Part shown: one piece after another, positions 9,130 to 64,000 of the stretch
Layout: each line of letters opens with the position of its first letter
Position numbering within the stretch: the stretch's first letter is position 1
Sequence record: PZ445530.1
Origin: a phage
Length of the DNA: 64,000 bases
Strand: one strand, 5' to 3'
Notes under the pieces: model-generated
What the model saw: only the letters and a program-made list of their open reading frames with translations
What the model was told of the DNA's origin: nothing
Database searches by the model: none
Translations under genes and position numbers: made by a program

Positions 9130-9145
9130 CATCTAGTTAACATAG

Positions 9146-9173
9146 CCCTGCCCGAAAGGGTGGGGCATTTTTG
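9146..9173 (+). terminator. Intrinsic terminator-like hairpin
   Basis: ccctgccc-gaaa-gggtgggg stem with GNRA loop followed by cattttt. Confidence 0.5.
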
Positions 9174-9191
9174 TATAAGGAGATCTGAAAA

Positions 9192-9608
9192 ATGACATTA
9201 GAAGATATCATTGTTAAACCTGAGAACTATGACCAATACAACCTGTCAACTCAATCTGTAGACCTTGGATGCGCCACAGTTAGTGCGTGGCTGGTTAACG
9301 GAAAAGAGCTGGACAAGTGCTTAGAAGCTCACATGTCTGTTAACAAGTTTCTGGATGAAAATACTCACTGGCTGGAAGGTGCAGGCGTATATGCTTCATG
9401 GTTGGAGAGCATGGGCTTTGACTATCAATCTGATGAAGGGTGGTGGAGCTATCTAGCTATCTGTCCAGAAACACGGCAATGCTTCATGAAATACTCTGAA
9501 GATCTTGAGTACCGAGCGGTGGTTGATAGTGCTATTGCCCGTTATAGCCGTAAACCTTTTTCCCACGACATTAAAACTGTGGAAGAATTTGTTGAAGTTT
9601 TCTGTTGA
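9192..9608 (+). CDS. hypothetical protein
   Basis: ORF; SD aaggag upstream. Confidence 0.5.
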   Translation: MTLEDIIVKPENYDQYNLSTQSVDLGCATVSAWLVNGKELDKCLEAHMSVNKFLDENTHWLEGAGVYASWLESMGFDYQSDEGWWSYLAICPETRQCFMKYSEDLEYRAVVDSAIARYSRKPFSHDIKTVEEFVEVFC

Positions 9609-9704
9609 CACAGGTTGAAAGGTGTGCAATTATAACTTCATATAACGGGAGGACGCGATGAACGAAGAAAACTGGGATGTATAACTAACAGGAGGCCACT
9701 GCCC

Positions 9705-9902
9705 ATGATTTATCGAATCCGTGTAAGAGAAGATGCACCAGGCTGTTACTTTGACTGGCGTGGGTGGTGGTTTCTCCACCCAATGGATGGACTCACAGAT
9801 AGAATGCTGGATGCTGCCCTTTATACAGATACCGACATAGAATATAATCTCTATCTGAAGGACGGTATAGATAACGGTCTATTTGAAGCAATTCCTGTGT
9901 AA
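9705..9902 (+). CDS. hypothetical protein
   Basis: ORF; SD caggagg upstream. Confidence 0.45.
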   Translation: MIYRIRVREDAPGCYFDWRGWWFLHPMDGLTDRMLDAALYTDTDIEYNLYLKDGIDNGLFEAIPV

Positions 9903-9967
9903 GAGACTGTGATAGCCATGTTTTATGATCTTCCTGTAGCACCACCTGTTGAACCTAGAGAACTAAG

Positions 9968-10393
9968 ATGATCTATGAAATGCCAAAACTGATTCGTGAC
10001 GATGCCCAAAACGCTAACACCATTATTATGGGCAAACGCATGGATATTATTTGTCATAAAGATTTCTGGGAAGGGAGTTACTTCACAGAGTATTTTGGTA
10101 AACTGGACAATGGTCTGCTGATCCAGTTCTACACCGATGCGGAAAACAATATCTGCTGGGAGTTCGAAACTGAAGATATCCATAAACTTTTCACCTTCCT
10201 AGGTATTAAGGTTGAGGCCAAGTTCGAAGAAGGTGAGTGCGACGATTGTGGATTCTACGAGGTAACAGATTTCTATCTCCCAAGTGGTGAGAACCTTTAC
10301 TATGAAAGCCACTTCGGTAACTCCAATATGCCACAGTGCTGGACTGAGTTTTTTGAAATTGCGGAAGAGGAGCTGGCATACCGTGATTATTGA
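9968..10393 (+). CDS. hypothetical protein
   Basis: ORF. Confidence 0.5.
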   Translation: MIYEMPKLIRDDAQNANTIIMGKRMDIICHKDFWEGSYFTEYFGKLDNGLLIQFYTDAENNICWEFETEDIHKLFTFLGIKVEAKFEEGECDDCGFYEVTDFYLPSGENLYYESHFGNSNMPQCWTEFFEIAEEELAYRDY

Positions 10394-12149: not shown

Positions 12150-12339
12150 GCTTAAATCTGCATGGAACATCGCTGTGGGGGACGAGATCCGTATCCCAGG
12201 TGGAAAGACCATTATGAAGATATCTCGTATTGAGTACGAAGGTGACCGTGTATTCCACATCCTCGCAGAAGATGGTCGAGAAATTTATATACAGGCAGGT
12301 TCTCACATTTATATCCGTAAGAAAGGGGACGACAAATGA
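12142..12339 (+). CDS. hypothetical protein
   Basis: ORF; SD aaggaggg before ATG 12142. Confidence 0.45.
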   Translation: MFKLKSAWNIAVGDEIRIPGGKTIMKISRIEYEGDRVFHILAEDGREIYIQAGSHIYIRKKGDDK

Positions 12340-12665
12340 CAGAGATCATCATTTCAACTGCAGGGTATGTGTTCCTGACAATCATTGCACTGACTATTTT
12401 GGTGACAGTGTATGGGTTTGTTATCCTTCCTATCCTTGAGACATTTAGTTTGTGTCGGTGTTGGAGAAAAGCTTACGGTCCACAACCATGGAAGGACTGG
12501 CCCCACCTGGTGCGCTTAGCGTTCTCTTATGCTTACGATCACTCCAGTAGTGCATGCATAACCGGATACCACGCCCACAACTGGAGCTGGGAAGGATTGA
12601 GGAAATGGAATGTTACAAAGACCATACCTCTACGCATGTACAAACCTAAAAACAAAGACAGCTGA
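12336..12665 (+). CDS. Small membrane protein
   Basis: Hydrophobic N-terminal segment; SD aaagggga upstream. Confidence 0.5.
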   Translation: MTEIIISTAGYVFLTIIALTILVTVYGFVILPILETFSLCRCWRKAYGPQPWKDWPHLVRLAFSYAYDHSSSACITGYHAHNWSWEGLRKWNVTKTIPLRMYKPKNKDS

Positions 12666-12699
12666 TACTTGAAAATTCCTGGCATATCAAGTGTAAGGG

Positions 12700-13260
12700 G
12701 GATTTCTAAAATGGATTTCCTCCTTTTGATATTTCACCGGGCTGGATATTTTAAAATTCTTAGAAAATCAGAAAATGGATCGAAAACTAAAATGGATTTT
12801 TCAGAGTAGGCGCGACAAGCTGAATAACTCATCCTATCGTTTGCACCATATTCCAGGCCACCATTATAGATTTTCCACACATGCTAACCTCCCTCTACTA
12901 GAACTTCCTCCACTTGCCCTTAACCTTCTATGGTAACAATCTAACCACTATCTTGAAGTTGCGGTGCAGCTTTCCAAGTACTCGATCTGTTTTTCATTTC
13001 ATGGCTTGGATTTTCTGAAAATTTTTCTCGATAAATTTCTCAGTACTCGATCTGTTTTTCGTTTTCTGAATCGGATTTTCTGGAAATCGTTCCGGATCTC
13101 GACCTGAAATTTTTGGGGACGAAATCGATTTTTCGTTTTCAGAAATGGATTTTTAAAATTTCTATATGGGAATATTTTATGGGATACTGTTTTATAGGAA
13201 ATTGTTACGGAGGGTAATTAGCATGCTAATTAAATTTATTAAATGCGAGGAGTTCTCATT
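12700..13260. repeat. Iteron-rich non-coding region (candidate origin/regulatory region)
   Basis: Repeated aaatggat(t) and ggattttctg motifs; direct repeat cagtactcgatctgtttttc x2; perfect palindrome taattagcatgctaatta at 13219-13236; no plausible ORF. Confidence 0.5.
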
Positions 13261-13269
13261 TAGAATTTT

Positions 13270-13286
13270 GAATGATAATCATTCTC
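13270..13286. promoter_or_regulatory. Fur-box-like palindrome (copy 1)
   Basis: gaatgataatcattctc, 15 of 17 match to GATAATGATAATCATTATC core. Confidence 0.35.
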
Positions 13287-13403
13287 GTTTGCAGAATAAC
13301 GGGCAGGCCCGGTGATTGTCTCCCGGCCCCTGTTGCCCCGGCTTGTTATTATAGTATCACACAGGACAAAGAAAGCAAGGATTTTTTGCATAAATTTTTA
13401 AAT

Positions 13404-13422
13404 GATAATGATAACCGTTCTC
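13404..13422. promoter_or_regulatory. Fur-box-like motif (copy 2)
   Basis: gataatgataaccgttctc, 16 of 19 match to Fur consensus; followed by GC-rich element similar to that after copy 1. Confidence 0.3.
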
Positions 13423-13693
13423 ATTTTATGCAGCGCCCATCCCCGGTGGTTGTCTTCCCCGTCACCGGTGCCTGCCGTCCTTTCGATAGGTATATTGTGC
13501 CACCTGGCGGGGCCGCTGTCAACACTTTTCAAAAAATTTTTCTAACCTGATGCGCTAACCGCTGCAACCTGGCGGGGCCAGCCTGGCAGGACCTAACTGA
13601 CCAGGTAGGAGAGAATGAAGGCTTGTAAACCTGGTGGGCCTATGCTATAGGACAGGTAACAATTGAAGAGGAGGTACAAAAATAAAAGGTAAT

Positions 13694-13852
13694 ATGATCC
13701 CCCTGGAAAATGTAGCTATTAATGACGCTGAGGCTATCGCCCTGGTTGAAAAGGCCATGGCGGGAGCGTTGGAACATAAAGAAGAGTACGAAAAAATGAT
13801 GGTTAACCTGGCAGGGCGGCGGCAGGTGGATTCTATCATAAAAATAATTTAA
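13694..13852 (+). CDS. hypothetical small protein (52 aa)
   Basis: Short ORF below track cutoff; weak SD. Confidence 0.3.
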   Translation: MIPLENVAINDAEAIALVEKAMAGALEHKEEYEKMMVNLAGRRQVDSIIKII

Positions 13853-18376: not shown

Positions 18377-18748
18377 ATGGAATTTATTATTTTGGCTGTA
18401 GTAGTTGCCTTGTTCAACGCCTGGATAGCTGGCAAAATAGGTAGATCCGCTTTTCTATGGTTTGTTATATCTATTTTCCTGGGAGTGGTTGCAACCATTG
18501 TACTAGTTATCCTTGCAATTGTTGACAAGGATAATAATAAGAAGGGTAAAGTATTTTCCGACCTGTATGACGCCCAAACTTTTGTTAACGCCTATTATAG
18601 TGATCTTCCGGTCTCCTTGCGCTGCAGCCTGGCGCAACAAGTTTTTGATGAGGCTAAAACCAGAGATCAAGCCCATGAGATATGTTTAACTGAGGCGGAT
18701 CGCCTATTTGAGAGGAATAGAAAATATGTGGGCCAGCCGTTTAAATAA
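18377..18748 (+). CDS. Membrane protein (two predicted TM segments)
   Basis: SD aaagagg before ATG 18377; hydrophobic stretches. Confidence 0.5.
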   Translation: MEFIILAVVVALFNAWIAGKIGRSAFLWFVISIFLGVVATIVLVILAIVDKDNNKKGKVFSDLYDAQTFVNAYYSDLPVSLRCSLAQQVFDEAKTRDQAHEICLTEADRLFERNRKYVGQPFK

Positions 18749-18971
18749 TACCACGTTAATTAATCCCTTTAGTGAAGATTTGAAGCCAGCCGCCTGGCGT
18801 GATGGATTCAATAACGAACGCTTTATTTTCAAGCCTGATCTTGAGGAATTTTATAACAATGGATCGAACAACAGCGGAGATAATTTTTCTTGGGATGTGC
18901 GTGGTGATGGTACTCCTGGGGGCCATTGTAAACCACGTCACTACTACCAGGAGGAAAGGGGGAGACGATGA
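18726..18971 (+). CDS. hypothetical protein
   Basis: ORF; weak SD. Confidence 0.4.
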   Translation: MWASRLNNTTLINPFSEDLKPAAWRDGFNNERFIFKPDLEEFYNNGSNNSGDNFSWDVRGDGTPGGHCKPRHYYQEERGRR

Positions 18972-20733: not shown

Positions 20734-20967
20734 ATGATGGAACAAATTAAACGCGCCGAGGCTATTAATGGCAACGTGATCTATTTTGTCAGCAAAAACG
20801 AAAAAGGCGTACCCTATGCGGCTGTAATAGTACAGCCTGACGGCGATTATTGGTGCACTGTGTACGGCGCTTATTCTTTTGGGCGTCCAGTGCATGATAA
20901 AATTTTGAAAGTAGCGAACCCTACCGGGAAAAATATTACAGCAGAAAAATTTTTTGAAAAGTGTTGA
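20734..20967 (+). CDS. hypothetical protein
   Basis: SD aagagagg. Confidence 0.5.
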   Translation: MMEQIKRAEAINGNVIYFVSKNEKGVPYAAVIVQPDGDYWCTVYGAYSFGRPVHDKILKVANPTGKNITAEKFFEKC

Positions 20968-21045
20968 CATGACCTTATAAGACTGTAGAATATAAATCAA
21001 AGGGGGGCAACAAGCCCCCCACCAACCACAAAGAGGATAAAAATC

Positions 21046-22504: not shown

Positions 22505-24935
22505 CTGCTCTTCTCCTACCATAAACGGCCCTACCTGGCAAGTGGAATAATTGACTAGCCATCAATCCCACATACTGTACAAATATACATGGAAAATAAC
22601 TATTGCATAATTTTTCATTGTGTGGTAGCAAGTCCATTTTTACCCGTTTTCTCTCCCAAAAGTGCACGTAATGCCGCTATTGCACAAATTTTAACCTGAT
22701 GCACATCTCCAATATCTTGTCAACAACTAAAAATCTTTATAAGTCATACACTTACACAGCATCGAAAGCGTGTTCTACGCGAAAAATCGAGTATAACTAT
22801 AGCCGCCAGATCTCAGAATTCACGTACGCACGCCATTCTATAGCCTGCAAAGTATTTATTCCAACCACAGAATAACGGAATAGTCAATACCTGCATAAAA
22901 TAATTATTCGTGCAAACTGCATAACATAAATCAGCTCAGGTGTCAACATTTTTCGTAAACAGTCCGAAATTATAACGATGAGTTATCATAAACAGAGAAA
23001 TCTTTAGTCGTCTAATGTTTACTGTACATTACTATACTGACTGGAATCATTAGATGACTAAGAGAAAGATAAGAAATAATTAATAATGTAATTATTTTAC
23101 CTGTAACAATAAGGCAACTATGCAAACGAATGGCATGGCGCGACGGAGTCGCGACATAATATAAAAGCAGTAACCATCACCCCCGTGATAGTTTGTCTGC
23201 AAACTATTAATCAGATCATAGTTGCCTTGTATTTAGTTAATCATGACATAACAAGCAAGGCAACTATAGATCTGCTAATAGTTGCCCTGCTTTTATATTA
23301 TGTCATGCTAATTATAATCAGTGCGATTATTGTCATGTATAATTATTGTCATGCAAACGAATGGCATGGCTGATTATCGGTGTGTAAACAGTCAATCATG
23401 TAAATGGTTAGCATGTGAACAATCAGGAATGTAAACAATCCAGTGTGTAAACTAATAGGTGTGTAAAAGTGTCATGTTGTGTCAGTTAGGTCACATTATG
23501 TCAGACAAGTTTTTCTCCTCTTTGTCAAGTGCTGCATGAAAAATTTACAAACTGGTATGGTAGCATTTTTGCGGCCCTGTTTACATTCAGTAATGTATGT
23601 ATAATCCTTGTTGTGTGGGCGTTTAGACGTCTAGACGGTTGGAAGTCCACAGGTCAATATCTAATCTATCGGCTGCTAACTATATCCCACACAAATAGCA
23701 AGAAATATGATTGTTATATGCGTAAACTGTAACTCATGTTATCAATCCCTGTATGGATCGCCAGTGGTGCGCATAATGGGTATTATGTTAAATTGCCCGT
23801 AATGATAACTATTCTCACAATGATAGGTATTCTCATTCATCCACATAAAATAGGTTGCAAATGTTGTGCCACTGTGTGAACGGCCTGGCCTATTAATTTG
23901 CCTCACTGCCTTGATATTTGAGAATTGTTATAAGAATGAGAAGTATTCCCATTTCGTCCGCCTGGCAGCACTCCTGTAGGTCAGGTCAAAATCGTGGTAG
24001 AATTGGGCCTGTTCAGATATTTCTGGCTGACTCTTCAGGTCTGTGTGGGAAAAGCCAACCTCTCCGGCGGGGCAGGGGGTCATGACGGGAAAATTGCAGG
24101 TCAATTAAAAATTTACGTGGTGTATGAAGCGCTCTTCAGGTAAGGCATGTATTATGGGATGAAACCCGCTTCAGGCAATGATATTTGTGGGTGTGATATT
24201 TGCTGGAAAGCCAGATATGACGGGACTCCCGGCGGGGATGGGGTAGTACAGACAGGGAAAATATGAGAATGTAGTTGGGGAAATTGATCAGACAGGTAGA
24301 GTATGGAATATGTTACAAGTATGTTAAATATGGAGGTTGAATATCTGTAGGATTTGTGTGTAAAATCAAAGACTTAAGGGGTGTTGTGGTATTTTCTATA
24401 AATAATTCAAGTTTAATAGGCAATATTTGTCTCTATCCGTTTTGTGTGGTAAACAGATTCAGATTAGATTGGTTTACAAGTGTATACATAATATACAAAT
24501 TAAAGATACAAGAAACCCCCCTCCCCCCTTCGGCTACCATTCACCTTTTCCTCTGACTGGTACTTAAACACTTATTCAGACTCTTCAGGTTATCACCCAT
24601 ATATCATATGGCAGTGACTGGTGTCCTCCGGCCCCTCTTTCGTCACCCGTCCGCTTCGCCATGCTAATGCCATAGCCAATGGTTCGGTTGTTCACCCTGT
24701 TCACTCAGGTGTATCTCCATACCCCTTCAAACCGAAGAGAACAGAAAACCCGAATTACTCGGTAAAAGAAAAGAGAAGAACTTAATTTTATCAGGATAGG
24801 CAAGAATGTCAAGGCATGACTGCTCACTAAACAAGCAAACAGTCATGTGTGGAAGGTAAGTGATTGTGGTGGTGGGAAATTTAGTTGAAAGATGTGTTAT
24901 AGGTGCTTCCAGCACTTTAGCCGGGCAGCTAATTG
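22505..24935. repeat. Repeat-rich non-coding region at the convergence of plus and minus transcription
   Basis: No convincing ORF; inverted repeats ggcaactat/atagttgcc; tgcaaacgaatggcatggc x2; tgtaaaca-type iterons 23380-23470; CTCTTCAGG x4; duplicated tccggcggggcagggg unit. Confidence 0.5.
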
Positions 24936-58768: not shown

Positions 58769-58843
58769 ACCAGTAAAAACTTAAATATCTGTACTATAAG
58801 GATTCGTATGTTTTATGTTCGCCATGGAACGGATACTATTAAC

Positions 58844-58924
58844 TGTCCGTGATACGGACACTACTGTCCGTCACGCGGACACATCTGCCCGTAATACGGA
58901 CACTAACTGTCCGTGATACGGACA
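58844..58924. promoter_or_regulatory. Array of four tandem 17-bp palindromic operator-like sites
   Basis: tgtccgtgatacggaca (58844-58860, 58908-58924) plus variants tgtccgtcacgcggaca and tgcccgtaatacggaca, 21-22 bp apart. Confidence 0.55.
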
Positions 58925-59429
58925 CATAAAGAATATAACTAAAATAACTAAATAATAAAAAATAAAAGATCTAGTACTTATGGTACTAAGTACATATACT
59001 TAACTTATGTAGAATATACTAGATCCTAAGTACCATGTTTTAAATTTATTACTTACTATGGGCAGTGTCGGCCCTTCATTGGCACTCGCCTACGAGGGGC
59101 GAGATGCCGGGCCTCCTTGGTGCACACAATAACAGAAGTTCATACATGCAGGTCTGTTAACATGTGTGGGAGCGAAGCGATAGCGCAGGCCAAAGGCCGA
59201 GCACTGATGTGGACCACCGACGAAAGCTTGCCAGCGCCGTAAGGAGTCGGTTGAGAGTCTCCCGCGCGAGCTTGGATGAAGTTTATGTGTGGAAACTGAC
59301 AAGAAGGCCCCTAAATCGCTCCACAGCTATATAAACTATACCAGGTAATGCAATCGCACCAGTTTGATAGAAAAGCTCGTTACAAAGCGATACAGTGAGT
59401 TTTTCTATAACTTGAAGAGGGGGGCAGCT

Positions 59430-61305: not shown

Positions 61306-61380
61306 GCCCTGTTAGCTTAGTGGATAAAGCAGCGGCCTTCTAAGCCGTTGACACTGGTTCGAGTCCAGTACGGGGTGCCA
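61306..61380 (+). tRNA. tRNA-Arg (anticodon TCT)
   Basis: Cloverleaf by hand: acceptor gccctgt/acggggt, T-loop ttcgagt, anticodon loop cttctaa, encoded CCA. Confidence 0.6.
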
Positions 61381-61384
61381 AATT

Positions 61385-61471
61385 GGGGAGTTATCCCGTA
61401 GAGGTAGCGGTGTAGACTGTAAATCTATTGTCATTACGACTCGGGTGGTTCGACTCCACCACTTCCCACCA
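61385..61471 (+). tRNA. tRNA-Tyr (anticodon GTA), class II long variable arm
   Basis: Acceptor ggggagt/acttccc, anticodon loop ctgtaaa, long variable arm, T-loop ttcgact, CCA. Confidence 0.55.
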
Positions 61472-61585
61472 AATTTATAGTTTTAAATGCATAAATCATA
61501 CAGATAATGGCATTGATATTTATCGTCGTTTATACTAGTCACTAACTGCTCGAAAATCAGTGTCATTATCAGTATTGTTTATAAA

Positions 61586-61676
61586 TGAGGGTAGGGAGCA
61601 ATGGTGCTCAAGCGGTCTTGAAAACCGTCCCGTTGAGGATGACTCGATGATGGTTCGATTCCATTACCCTCAGCCA
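61586..61676 (+). tRNA. tRNA-Ser (anticodon TGA), class II
   Basis: Acceptor tgagggt/accctca, anticodon loop cttgaaa, long variable arm, T-loop ttcgatt, CCA. Confidence 0.5.
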
Positions 61677-61774
61677 TATTGTTGACCTTGTAATTAAGCG
61701 AAAGCCGGAAGCAGAACCGGATTATCAAATGTTACAGTCGTCATCGCCGACTAGCAACATGGTCAACATACTGA

Positions 61775-61871
61775 GCTAGGTAAGCCCTTTGGCAAGGGCG
61801 AGGATTTTTAATCCTGAAAATAGACGAGGTAGTCGTTGAATACATAGGTGGTTCGATTCCATCACCTAGCA
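61775..61871 (+). ncRNA. Aberrant tRNA-like element (97 nt)
   Basis: Acceptor gctaggt/acctagc and T-arm ggtgg-ttcgatt-ccatc are canonical, but anticodon arm folds as aggat-tttta-atcct (5-nt loop) with about 30-nt extra arm. Confidence 0.3.
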
Positions 61872-61879
61872 CCTTTTTT

Positions 61880-61955
61880 GCTGATGTAGCACAATTGGTA
61901 GTGCAATTGATTTGTAATCAATAGGTTGCAGGTTCAAGTCCTGCCATCAGCACCA
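61880..61955 (+). tRNA. tRNA-Thr (anticodon TGT)
   Basis: Acceptor gctgatg/catcagc, anticodon stem attga/tcaat with loop tttgtaa, T-loop ttcaagt, CCA. Confidence 0.6.
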
Positions 61956-61956
61956 T

Positions 61957-62031
61957 GGCCCTGTAGCTGGAAGGTTCAAGCAAGCGACTCATAATCGCCA
62001 GACGGTGGTTCAATTCCACCCAGGGCCACCA
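61957..62031 (+). tRNA. tRNA-Met or Ile2 (anticodon CAT)
   Basis: Acceptor ggccctg/cagggcc, anticodon loop ctcataa, T-loop ttcaatt, CCA. Confidence 0.6.
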
Positions 62032-62043
62032 AATAATAAATAC

Positions 62044-62119
62044 TCCGCGTAGCTCAGCTTGGTAGAGCGCCTGATTTGGGATCAGGAGGTCGAGTGTTCG
62101 AATCACTCCGTGGAGACCA
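62044..62119 (+). tRNA. tRNA-Pro (anticodon TGG)
   Basis: Acceptor ctccgcg/cgtggag, anticodon stem cctga/tcagg with loop tttggga, T-loop ttcgaat, CCA. Confidence 0.6.
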
Positions 62120-63223: not shown

Positions 63224-63648
63224 TGTCTAAGATTTACGGACCGTGTTCTGAAAAGCAGAAGATGATCCTCGAAAACGATGCAGATATTTTGGTAATCGGC
63301 GGTGCCGCAGGGTCTGGCAAGTCGTTCCTCTTGCAATTGATGCCACTTAAAATTATTGATGACCCCCACAGCTCTGTGGTTATGTTCCGAAGAACAACCC
63401 CGCAGTTGGAAGGTGAGGGTGGACTATGGCCTAAAGCGGTAGCTATTTATAGTGATCTGCCTGAAAACATTAAGCCAAAGTTCAGAGAGAAGGATCATAA
63501 GTTCATTTTTCCACGGTTTGATCCGAACACTGGCAAGTGGGATAGAAGCAAAAAGGGAGCTGTTGTAAAATACTGCCACATGGAGTATGTACAAGATAAG
63601 CTTAACCATCAAGGGCTTGAGTACACCATGGTTTGCTTCGATGAGGGT
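63223..63648 (+). CDS. Terminase large subunit, exon 1 (ATPase N-terminus)
   Basis: Walker A VIGGAAGSGKS; Walker B MVCFDEG at exon end; stop codon lies inside group I intron. Confidence 0.7.
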
Positions 63649-64000
63649 TAATTTGTAGCTCTCGTAAAACCTCCCTAATTGCGGGGAAATCTTTACTATT
63701 AATACCACCAACCTGTCATGGTAACATGATAGAGGCTTCGAAGAGAGATCGAAGGTATGGTAACAGTGTGTTAATTTAGATAATCCGCAGCGAAGCATCC
63801 GAGAGGATGAACGTTCAACGACTAGTCGAAAGACGTAGAATCAAGCGATTCGAAACGGGAGGATAAGCGGTTGTTGTCGCTTATAAGATATAGTCTGGTC
63901 TGCATGGAGACATGCAGCTGCCTGAAAATGGCGGGGCAAGACTAGCGACCTTGCCCGAACATAAACGACACAATTCGAATGGGAGCAGATAGACTATCTG
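63649..64000 (+). mobile_element. Group I intron interrupting terminase large subunit (3' end beyond window)
   Basis: P aattgcggggaaa 63677-63689, Q taatccgcagcgaag 63781-63795 (identical 15-mer to pol intron), R gttcaacgacta 63813-63824, S aagatatagtc 63885-63895; no long ORF inside. Confidence 0.65.

Follow-up and report, generated by a model that had tools for sequence, protein, structure and literature searches.

A conserved non-coding repeat array at the inner edge of the terminal small-gene block of an rV5-like phage: a candidate member of the T5 border class

We analyzed a 64,000-nucleotide stretch of phage DNA (sequence record PZ445530.1), referred to here as the window, and within it the repeat array at positions 12664-13260, together with the gene-free gap of which the array forms one half. 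The region is a non-coding, single-copy cis-element, in which several direct-repeat families follow each other in a fixed order. As to its role, we favor, with a rough probability of 35%, the reading that the array makes up one half of a conserved element at the border of the terminal early block, belonging to the class of the border between first-step transfer (FST) and second-step transfer (SST) DNA of phage T5. The repeats would then be binding sites for host and/or phage proteins that build a nucleoprotein complex at the border, and the element would be the counterpart of the T5-like “injection stop signal” region between the FST and SST DNA. Its action in cis could consist of pausing or gating DNA entry, of shutting off or insulating early transcription, or of both, while the operators next to the array would act as a gate for leftward transcription into it.

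The repeat array and its conservation

The interval 12300-13700 matches 122 phage records, with Escherichia phage ECML-10 as the best match (99.3%) and other Vequintavirus (rV5-like) myophages of ~136 kb as the next best ones. By sequence similarity, the window is thus assigned to Vequintavirus, that is, to an rV5-like myophage of E. coli. The array lies in a 1,028-bp gap (12666-13693) that is free of open reading frames (ORFs); the gap is flanked by an upstream gene at 12336-12665 (phrog_2531) and by the first small downstream gene, whose ATG is at 13694. The longest ORF within 12700-13260 has at most 53 amino acids, in line with the original prediction, which had been made from the sequence alone and had described that interval as devoid of plausible ORFs. 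In the whole gap, the longest ORF has 92 amino acids (13272-13550); it was rejected as a gene, since its start lies inside an operator and it is not kept in other genera. GenBank annotation of the gap is inconsistent, ranging from none (WM, YP-6) to seven tiny ORFs (NHEP1). Given that a 1-nt indel in a T-run at ~12797 distinguishes close relatives and that the cross-genus gaps in the alignment are not multiples of three, the gap is non-coding, and, with the inconsistent annotation, a coding role is ruled out.

The short repeats reported by the original prediction (aaatggat(t) and ggattttctg) are present and unique to the locus. AAATGGAT occurs at 12709, 12773, 12790, and 13143, always on the + strand, and these are the sole four copies on either strand of the window; GGATTTTCTG occurs at 13008 and 13073, without further copies. 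For the direct repeat (A/C)AGTACTCGATCTGTTTTTC(A/G)TTT(T)C, the two copies begin at 12975 and 13040, which corrects its predicted spacing of about 60 bp to 65 bp; the repeat forms part of a family of three 64-74-bp units, whose copies show 79% and 74% identity over 47 nt (internal BLAST E-value of 2.8e-12). Both the short motifs and the ~65-bp direct repeat occur far above chance expectation. The predicted 18-bp palindrome TAATTAGCATGCTAATTA is also there, at 13215-13232, and is the longest perfect one in the window, but it is supported neither by statistics, given that 26% of Markov shuffles contained an equal or longer one, nor by evolution, given that 8 of the 11 aligned relatives have mismatches in it without compensating changes. 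As a functional dyad, it was therefore rejected. The array half of the gap comprises the following features:

12664-12752, + strand: three GATAYTT motifs (12664, 12728, 12745); other genera carry three to five GATATTT motifs at the same place.
12706-12800, + strand: cluster of AAATGGAT(T) (12709, 12773, 12790); an AAATGGWTTT cluster stands at the same place in other genera.
12810-12967, no strand: variable spacer in the alignment, 74-78% conserved, with substitutions and no indels.
12968-13032, + strand: composite unit 1, ACTCGATCTGTTTTTCA ... GGATTTTCTG ... GAAAATTTTTC, from the repeat search and the cross-genus reading.
13033-13106, + strand: composite unit 2, from the repeat search and the alignment.
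13107-13170, + strand: composite unit 3, the most diverged copy, with the dyad ACGAAA-TCGATT-TTTCGT and the fourth AAATGGAT.
13140-13260, no strand: easily melted AT-rich stretch; its duplex stability ranks 4th to 6th from the bottom in the window.
13215-13232, no strand: the perfect 18-bp palindrome TAATTAGCATGCTAATTA.

Inside the composite units, a consensus scan and inspection of both strands found no sigma-70 promoters, and a scan for intrinsic terminators returned just weak AT-rich hairpins. There is no enrichment of GATC either (4 in 560 bp versus a window mean of one per 183 bp), and the units of the Erwinia-type relatives contain none.

To gain a view of the selection acting on this DNA, we aligned twelve Vequintavirus genomes, which are 83-99% identical over the region. 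The flanking coding DNA is ~89-96% conserved, whereas the interval 13010-13159 (units 2 and 3) reaches 94-98.5% and thus lies above the flanking genes. Within the genus, the AAATGGAT cluster (12760-12809) is conserved at 95% and the interval 13260-13559 at 93-99%, compared with just 74-78% for 12810-12959 and with a length-variable segment at 13560-13659. Each of the 117 Vequintavirus records with the array contains it once. This pattern of conservation, together with the single copy in those 117 records, indicates that selection acts on the non-coding DNA itself.

The layout also extends to other genera. Distant BLAST matches define a core of 60-160 nt at ~13230-13387 (strongest at 13252-13340; identity of 70-88%) in unannotated DNA of Phapecoctavirus, Klebsiella (Mydovirus), Serratia, Salmonella (Seunavirus), Pectobacterium and Cronobacter (Certrevirus), and Erwinia phages. 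Around it, the parts keep a shared order: after the upstream + strand gene come the GATATTT cluster, the AAATGGWTTT cluster, a 150-200-bp spacer, and exactly three units of 65-75 bp (cross-genus consensus GGTACTCGATCGGTTTTTCAA.TTC.AAATCGGATTTT...GCGAAAAAATTTTTT), followed by one to four copies of the palindrome AATGA(G/T)AATCATTCTCATT, a sequence-conserved GC-rich segment with the core GGTGTTTGTCT, and a sigma-70-type promoter on the opposite strand that is aimed at the array (in PVP-SE1, TTGATC-16-TATTAT with TG upstream). This layout is present in PVP-SE1, Kashira, BIS47, and the Erwinia-type contigs L125 and L038, and its three units recur in Seunavirus, Mydovirus, Serratia, and Erwinia relatives. 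Contig L064 holds most of it, with three units that share just a CTCGATCG core and are followed by Fur-type boxes, and Phapecoctavirus keeps the layout with different AT-rich repeats. The GGA-type motifs are not conserved across genera.

Operators, leftward promoters, and the early-gene block

The other half of the gap contains candidate operators and predicted promoters. We built a position weight matrix (PWM) for Fur from 11 published iron boxes (list in PMC10665472), on which the known boxes score between 13.6 and 26.4 bits. The two best matches of the whole window, at 13404-13422 (21.9 bits) and 13268-13286 (18.3 bits), both fall in the gap and both exceed 17.1 bits, the maximum among 20 shuffles. 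The features of this half are as follows:

13245-13292, no strand: Fur-box-type operator cluster A, with the 18.3-bit site at 13268-13286, an overlapping site at 13274-13292 (15.2 bits), and a decayed copy of the box at 13247-13262.
13296-13346, - strand: conserved GC-rich leader A with the core GGTGATTGTCTCC, kept in sequence across genera without covariation.
13348-13378, - strand: predicted leftward promoter A-, read either as TTGCTT, a 19-nt spacer, and TATAAT, or as an extended -10 element TGTGATACT; other genera have TTGATC-16-TATTAT-type promoters at this position.
13398-13428, no strand: Fur-box-type operator B, with the window's best site at 13404-13422.
13494-13545, - strand: predicted early-class leftward promoter B-, consisting of an UP element and TTGACA-17-CACAAT preceded by TG; the consensus scan places its core at 13522-13494.
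13498-13640, + strand: four GC-rich repeats of the ACCTGGCGGGGCC type; the segment right of 13560 differs in length between relatives.

The UP/-35 part of promoter B- shares 27 nt exactly with an early-type promoter on the + strand at 20943-20969, and in phage EdH4 the promoter-plus-leader module also precedes an early gene in normal orientation. From these sequence features, two early-class promoters appear to fire leftward, against the direction of all neighboring genes, and their transcripts would cross the operators and the easily melted stretch before reaching the three units. No terminators for such transcripts were found in a scan. The gap contains no Rfam match above noise at gathering or lax thresholds, and none of the 13 predicted pairs of the GC-rich leader shows a compensatory change among 8 lineages.

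In several other genera, the homologous gap holds a small leftward gene, located on the - strand of L005 (2780-3046), L002 (3314-3580), L004 (2794-2976), and L006 (2826-3011). Two types were seen, an 88-amino-acid protein with a LGWQGGTVHQVA..TGL motif resembling a helix-turn-helix by eye (phrog_19316) and a 60-amino-acid DUF7170 protein. Homologues of both are absent from the window, and Vequintavirus has a second promoter/operator unit instead. A conserved GC-rich element, CTACCGGCGATCCACCTTCC...GTTAGCCCCGCCTTTACGCCGTGGGGTGGCG, adjoins the leftward gene and pairs better as + strand RNA, with G-U pairs, than as - strand RNA. In addition, EdH4 carries an extra copy of the module of promoter and GC-rich leader (GACAGGCAGGCCCGGTGATTGTCTCC...; L003 2200-2270), ~2.2 kb from its physical end; this extra copy has the opposite orientation to the one next to the array, lacks an operator, and is absent from the window. 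It recalls the T5 arrangement of IRC/IRD modules that are inverted relative to IRD'/IRC'.

To place the operators in a wider context, we scanned IMG/VR with the 20-nt palindrome, AATGA(G/T)AATCATTCTC(A/G)TTT, which was present in at least 120 viral contigs (loci L019-L138) that differ widely in size and source, frequently as groups of 2-11 copies. At least 16 distinct contexts have a TTGACA-17-TAAAAT promoter that points at the palindrome and ends 9-13 nt upstream of it, suggesting a widespread and so far undescribed use of Fur-type operators at strong phage promoters. Loci L059, L061, L069, L101, and L107 are examples of such palindromes. Among the matches listed, DnaA boxes are ~8-fold enriched within 500 nt of the palindrome, and some genomes of 108-120 kb carry arrays of the motif next to DnaA boxes. 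The palindrome binder may be Fur or a phage-encoded protein.

The position of the element in the genome was derived from the termini of relatives. Vequintavirus genomes have direct terminal repeats of 458-459 bp (Korf 2019; Dias 2020); the first 459 bp of EdH4 are identical to its last 459 bp, the Gotham record annotates positions 1-459 as a repeat region, and this repeat maps to 23504-23962 of the window, which marks the physical ends. The region is therefore 10.7-11.3 kb away from the physical end, or 7.9-8.3% of 136 kb. In the termini-anchored genomes of EdH4, HdK5, and Gotham, it is found at 10.9-12.2 kb from the end. In Schickermooser, a Phapecoctavirus from another subfamily with a verified terminal repeat of 329 bp, the homologous element lies ~13.9 kb (~9%) from the right end and is followed by ~37 small genes, all directed toward that end. 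Similarly, ~30 small genes start at the region studied here and run toward the physical end (13694 to ~22900), and a promoter scan of this terminal block found 11 TTGACA promoters with AT-rich UP elements in 8 kb. Since the same promoter-dense pattern of small genes was read as “likely early” in a related Certrevirus (PMC7344957), the terminal block is likely of the early type as well. The original prediction had placed the region upstream of an early gene block, and it indeed lies directly upstream of these small genes with their dense sigma-70 and UP-element promoters. We compared 24 ORFs with PHROG (22 from the terminal block, the upstream neighbor, and the overlapping ORF at 18708-18971), and all of them belong to families of unknown function, with none in a family of known function. 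Pfam, scanned for 12 of the 24, gave nothing above the curated cut-offs.

The terminal repeat is present in one copy in the window and sits within a gene-free zone at ~22900-24900. Weaker Fur-box-like sites are located inside the repeat near its 23962 end, one at 23798-23816 (13.4 bits) and, by eye, others at 23819-23840 and, inverted, at 23917-23950, and direct repeats resembling GTGTGTAAAC are found just outside it (23380-23470). Judged from gene orientation and GC skew, the genes of the window lie on the + strand from position 1 to ~22.9 kb, where the 2-kb gene-free zone begins, then on the - strand to ~58 kb, and then again on the + strand, together with a tRNA cluster. This cluster comprises seven tRNAs (61306-62119), of which ARAGORN reads the one at 61775-61873 with a 4-base anticodon (Rfam score of just 35.5 bits). 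A group I intron is located at the right edge of the window (63639-63917; Rfam, 84 bits).

Alternative roles of the array

Purely transcriptional control is a doubtful but serious alternative to a border element. Here, the two leftward early promoters, gated by Fur-type operators, and the protein-binding repeats would insulate the early block from the co-oriented block upstream of it, by convergent transcription, antisense RNA, or roadblocks, so that early expression would be tied to the host iron status without any role in entry or replication. This would agree with the classical operator position of the palindrome in the at least 16 promoter contexts from IMG/VR, with Fur-PWM scores equal to those of known iron boxes (PMC10665472), with the early class of the leftward promoters, and with the real leftward gene (phrog_19316 or DUF7170) that other genera carry. 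However, it leaves unexplained why the number and order of the three units and two motif clusters are fixed across genera and why the rest of the genome is devoid of these motifs, and in Vequintavirus there is neither a leftward target ORF nor a leftward terminator among the features found. If instead the leftward transcripts themselves were the product, the locus would encode a non-coding RNA in which the units act as RNA, for example as a protein sponge. Two predicted early promoters pointing into ~800 bp without an ORF, as well as the strong sequence conservation, are compatible with this idea, but we consider it very unlikely, given the lack of Rfam matches at lax thresholds, of compensatory changes in the leader among the 8 lineages, and of a terminator, the weak and AT-rich hairpins of the units, and the GGA-type motifs that are not kept across genera.

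The original prediction had offered a replication origin or a packaging or regulatory site as typical roles for such repeats. Because the 459-bp terminal repeat maps to 23504-23962, 10.2 kb from the region, the element is not a packaging (pac/cos) site, and this part of the prediction fails. Repeat-rich non-coding DNA is typical of pac regions, and several GenBank records annotate small ORFs that could be the remains of a decayed gene; yet, with the physical ends located elsewhere, frameshifting indels that rule out coding, and a region that is more conserved than its coding flanks and keeps its architecture across genera, which rules out neutral decay, both explanations are highly improbable.

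The origin part of the prediction is weakened. The region is, as predicted, a genuine non-coding, multi-repeat cis-element, with iterons (12968-13170), an adjacent AT-rich unwinding stretch (13140-13260), and predicted promoters aimed into that stretch (B-, 13522-13494; A-, 13378-13348). A primary or secondary origin could work in the manner of T7 or T4, with leftward transcription from 13522 and ~13353 opening the stretch at 13140-13260 and the three composite iterons binding an initiator or host architectural proteins. T7-like replisomes typically use transcription-primed origins; the T7 primary origin consists of the phi1.1A/B promoters and an AT-rich region, and T4 oriF and oriG of a middle promoter and an unwinding element. 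As in these origins, tandem promoters precede AT-rich DNA here, and the polymerase and primase-helicase of the phage are T7-like, but the promoters are of the host sigma-70 type and operators stand between them and the AT-rich stretch. The rV5 replisome is T7-like, with an A-family polymerase and a gp4-type primase-helicase (PMC3606486), which, together with the stability rank of the stretch beside the iterons and the uniqueness of the site in the genome, speaks for an origin. Against it, the gap has no conserved DnaA box, no initiator gene adjoins the units (the neighbors belong to PHROGs of unknown function and have no Pfam domain), and no skew inflection occurs at the region within the window; skew changes in rV5 follow transcription (PMC3606486). 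The similarity of GATCTGTTTTTC in the units to the oriC 13-mer was rejected as non-specific, with 53 matches in the window at ≤2 mismatches, and the comparable border region of T5 is not the T5 origin (Davison). The papers examined on rV5-like phages describe no origin or other function for the region.

A far more canonical origin layout is located elsewhere in the window. Four tandem iterons of 21-22 bp, each with the dyad TAACTGTCCGTGATACGGACAC (TGTCCGT...ACGGACA), span 58840-58925 and are directly followed by the least stable and most AT-rich DNA of the window (58926-59040), including a perfect oriC-13-mer-like GATCTTTTATTTT at 58959-58971. This interval is intergenic, with divergent genes on its two sides, and adjoins the leftward block, which should hold the replication genes according to the rV5 map (PMC3606486). 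It is kept in 119 Vequintavirus records, its length varying by about one iteron. In ori-lambda, four 19-bp dyad iterons are followed by an AT-rich stretch and a palindrome. The array has the same order, with transcription toward the site, but its units are composite, 64-74 bp long, only three in number, and not in or beside an initiator gene, and the interval at 58840-59040 fits the ori-lambda family much better. By its sequence, we regard this interval, a textbook lambda-type layout, as a better origin candidate than the array. Phages can have more than one origin; the array is probably not the main one, and any origin role for it seems rather unlikely.

Comparison with Fur-regulated promoters and the T5 border

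Compared with the Fur-repressed promoters of enterobacteria (iron boxes GATAATGAGAATCATTATT and TGTAATGATAACCATTCTC; PMC10665472), the phage palindromes score equally well and, in many phage contigs, occupy operator positions too. Unlike those promoters, the boxes found here are located in a virulent phage, beside and not inside the repeat array. If the palindromes bind Fur, virulent coliphages would read or titrate the host iron regulator at the start of infection.

In T5 (NC_005859), the annotated injection stop signal (iss; T5 Repeat Region 3) spans 9140-10149 of 121,750 bp, at ~8% of the genome. We found that it holds an array of AAATGAGAATCATT...TCATT palindromes at 9549-9712 (L139 5550-5713); together with the direct repeats in the core of the signal, they are near-consensus Fur boxes and give the best Fur-PWM scores of an 8.5-kb T5 stretch (19.2 and 20.8 bits). 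Position 9618, which Davison calculated as the FST shear point of T5, falls inside this palindrome array. Such arrays were also seen in T5-like contigs from IMG/VR (L062 6360-6990 and L065 1660-2170). Davison described the T5 region as an untranslated and extremely conserved “Matryoshka” of direct and inverted repeats, palindromes, and DnaA boxes, with 66-bp DRE repeats among the direct ones. Fur is mentioned neither in that description nor in the BF23 paper (PMC10644984), the two sources on the T5 border that we examined.

Several differences between the two systems weigh against placing the array in the T5 class. The T5 region lies inside a terminal repeat of ~10 kb, in contrast to 459 bp here; it carries ~8 DnaA boxes and ~9 TGTGCAAATCCGAC repeats, neither of which is present here (the one DnaA box match in the gap, at 12871, is not conserved); and nothing in it clearly corresponds to the three composite units. 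No counterpart of the T5 proteins A1, A2, and Dmp was recognized by PHROG among the 22 ORFs of the terminal block. Moreover, many unrelated phage contigs carry the palindrome as well, mostly in an operator position right behind a strong promoter, and its presence in both systems may simply reflect the common use of one host regulator. According to the BF23 paper (PMC10644984), the T5 border sites themselves lack experimental studies. T5 is also a siphovirus, whereas the phage studied here is a myovirus, and paired DnaA boxes of the T5 type (IRD'-spacer-IRC') were not found, with 5 matches to TTWTNCACA in the window versus 8.5 expected.

A bolder form of the border reading holds that rV5-like (Vequintavirinae) and phAPEC8-like (Stephanstirmvirinae) phages deliver their DNA in two steps like T5. 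The leading 8-9% of the genome, with a set of ~30 small genes for host takeover, would reach the cell and be expressed ahead of the rest, DNA transfer would then pause at the array, and the near-perfect Fur boxes would let a host protein, most simply Fur, hold or gate the DNA. We consider this improbable as a complete scenario; if true, it would recast the T5 injection stop signal as an array of Fur boxes. Vequintaviruses, T5-like phages, and Drexlerviridae are all markedly sensitive to the DNA intercalator daunorubicin, with an abortive infection-like outcome, and in a T5-like phage the effect was traced to a block after first-step transfer (PMC13250531). This shared sensitivity is circumstantial and would fit a T5-like mode of entry.

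Apart from its mechanism, the analysis defines a conserved, essential-looking cis-element in rV5-like phages, which are common in therapy cocktails and typing sets, and separates it both from the likely origin (58.8-59.0 kb) and from the terminal repeat. For the T5 injection stop signal, known for decades, an independent phage group gives a comparative handle on which of its repeats matter and what binds them. Both the T5/BF23 border and the region described here span ~1 kb without genes, at ~8% of the genome length from a physical end; both delimit, on its inner side, a block of small genes of the pre-early or early kind that carry host-type promoters, and both are strongly conserved relative to the neighboring genes. 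Both contain palindromes together with direct-repeat families of similar size (66-bp DRE repeats in T5 and 64-74-bp units here), and both share the Fur-box-type palindrome AAATGAGAATCATT.TCATT, which in the window adjoins the array at 13245-13292 and 13398-13428. In this comparison, features restricted to T5, such as the DnaA boxes, are less likely to be essential, and the prime candidates are those common to T5 and the rV5-like phages, namely, the Fur-type palindromes, the position, and the ~65-bp repeats.

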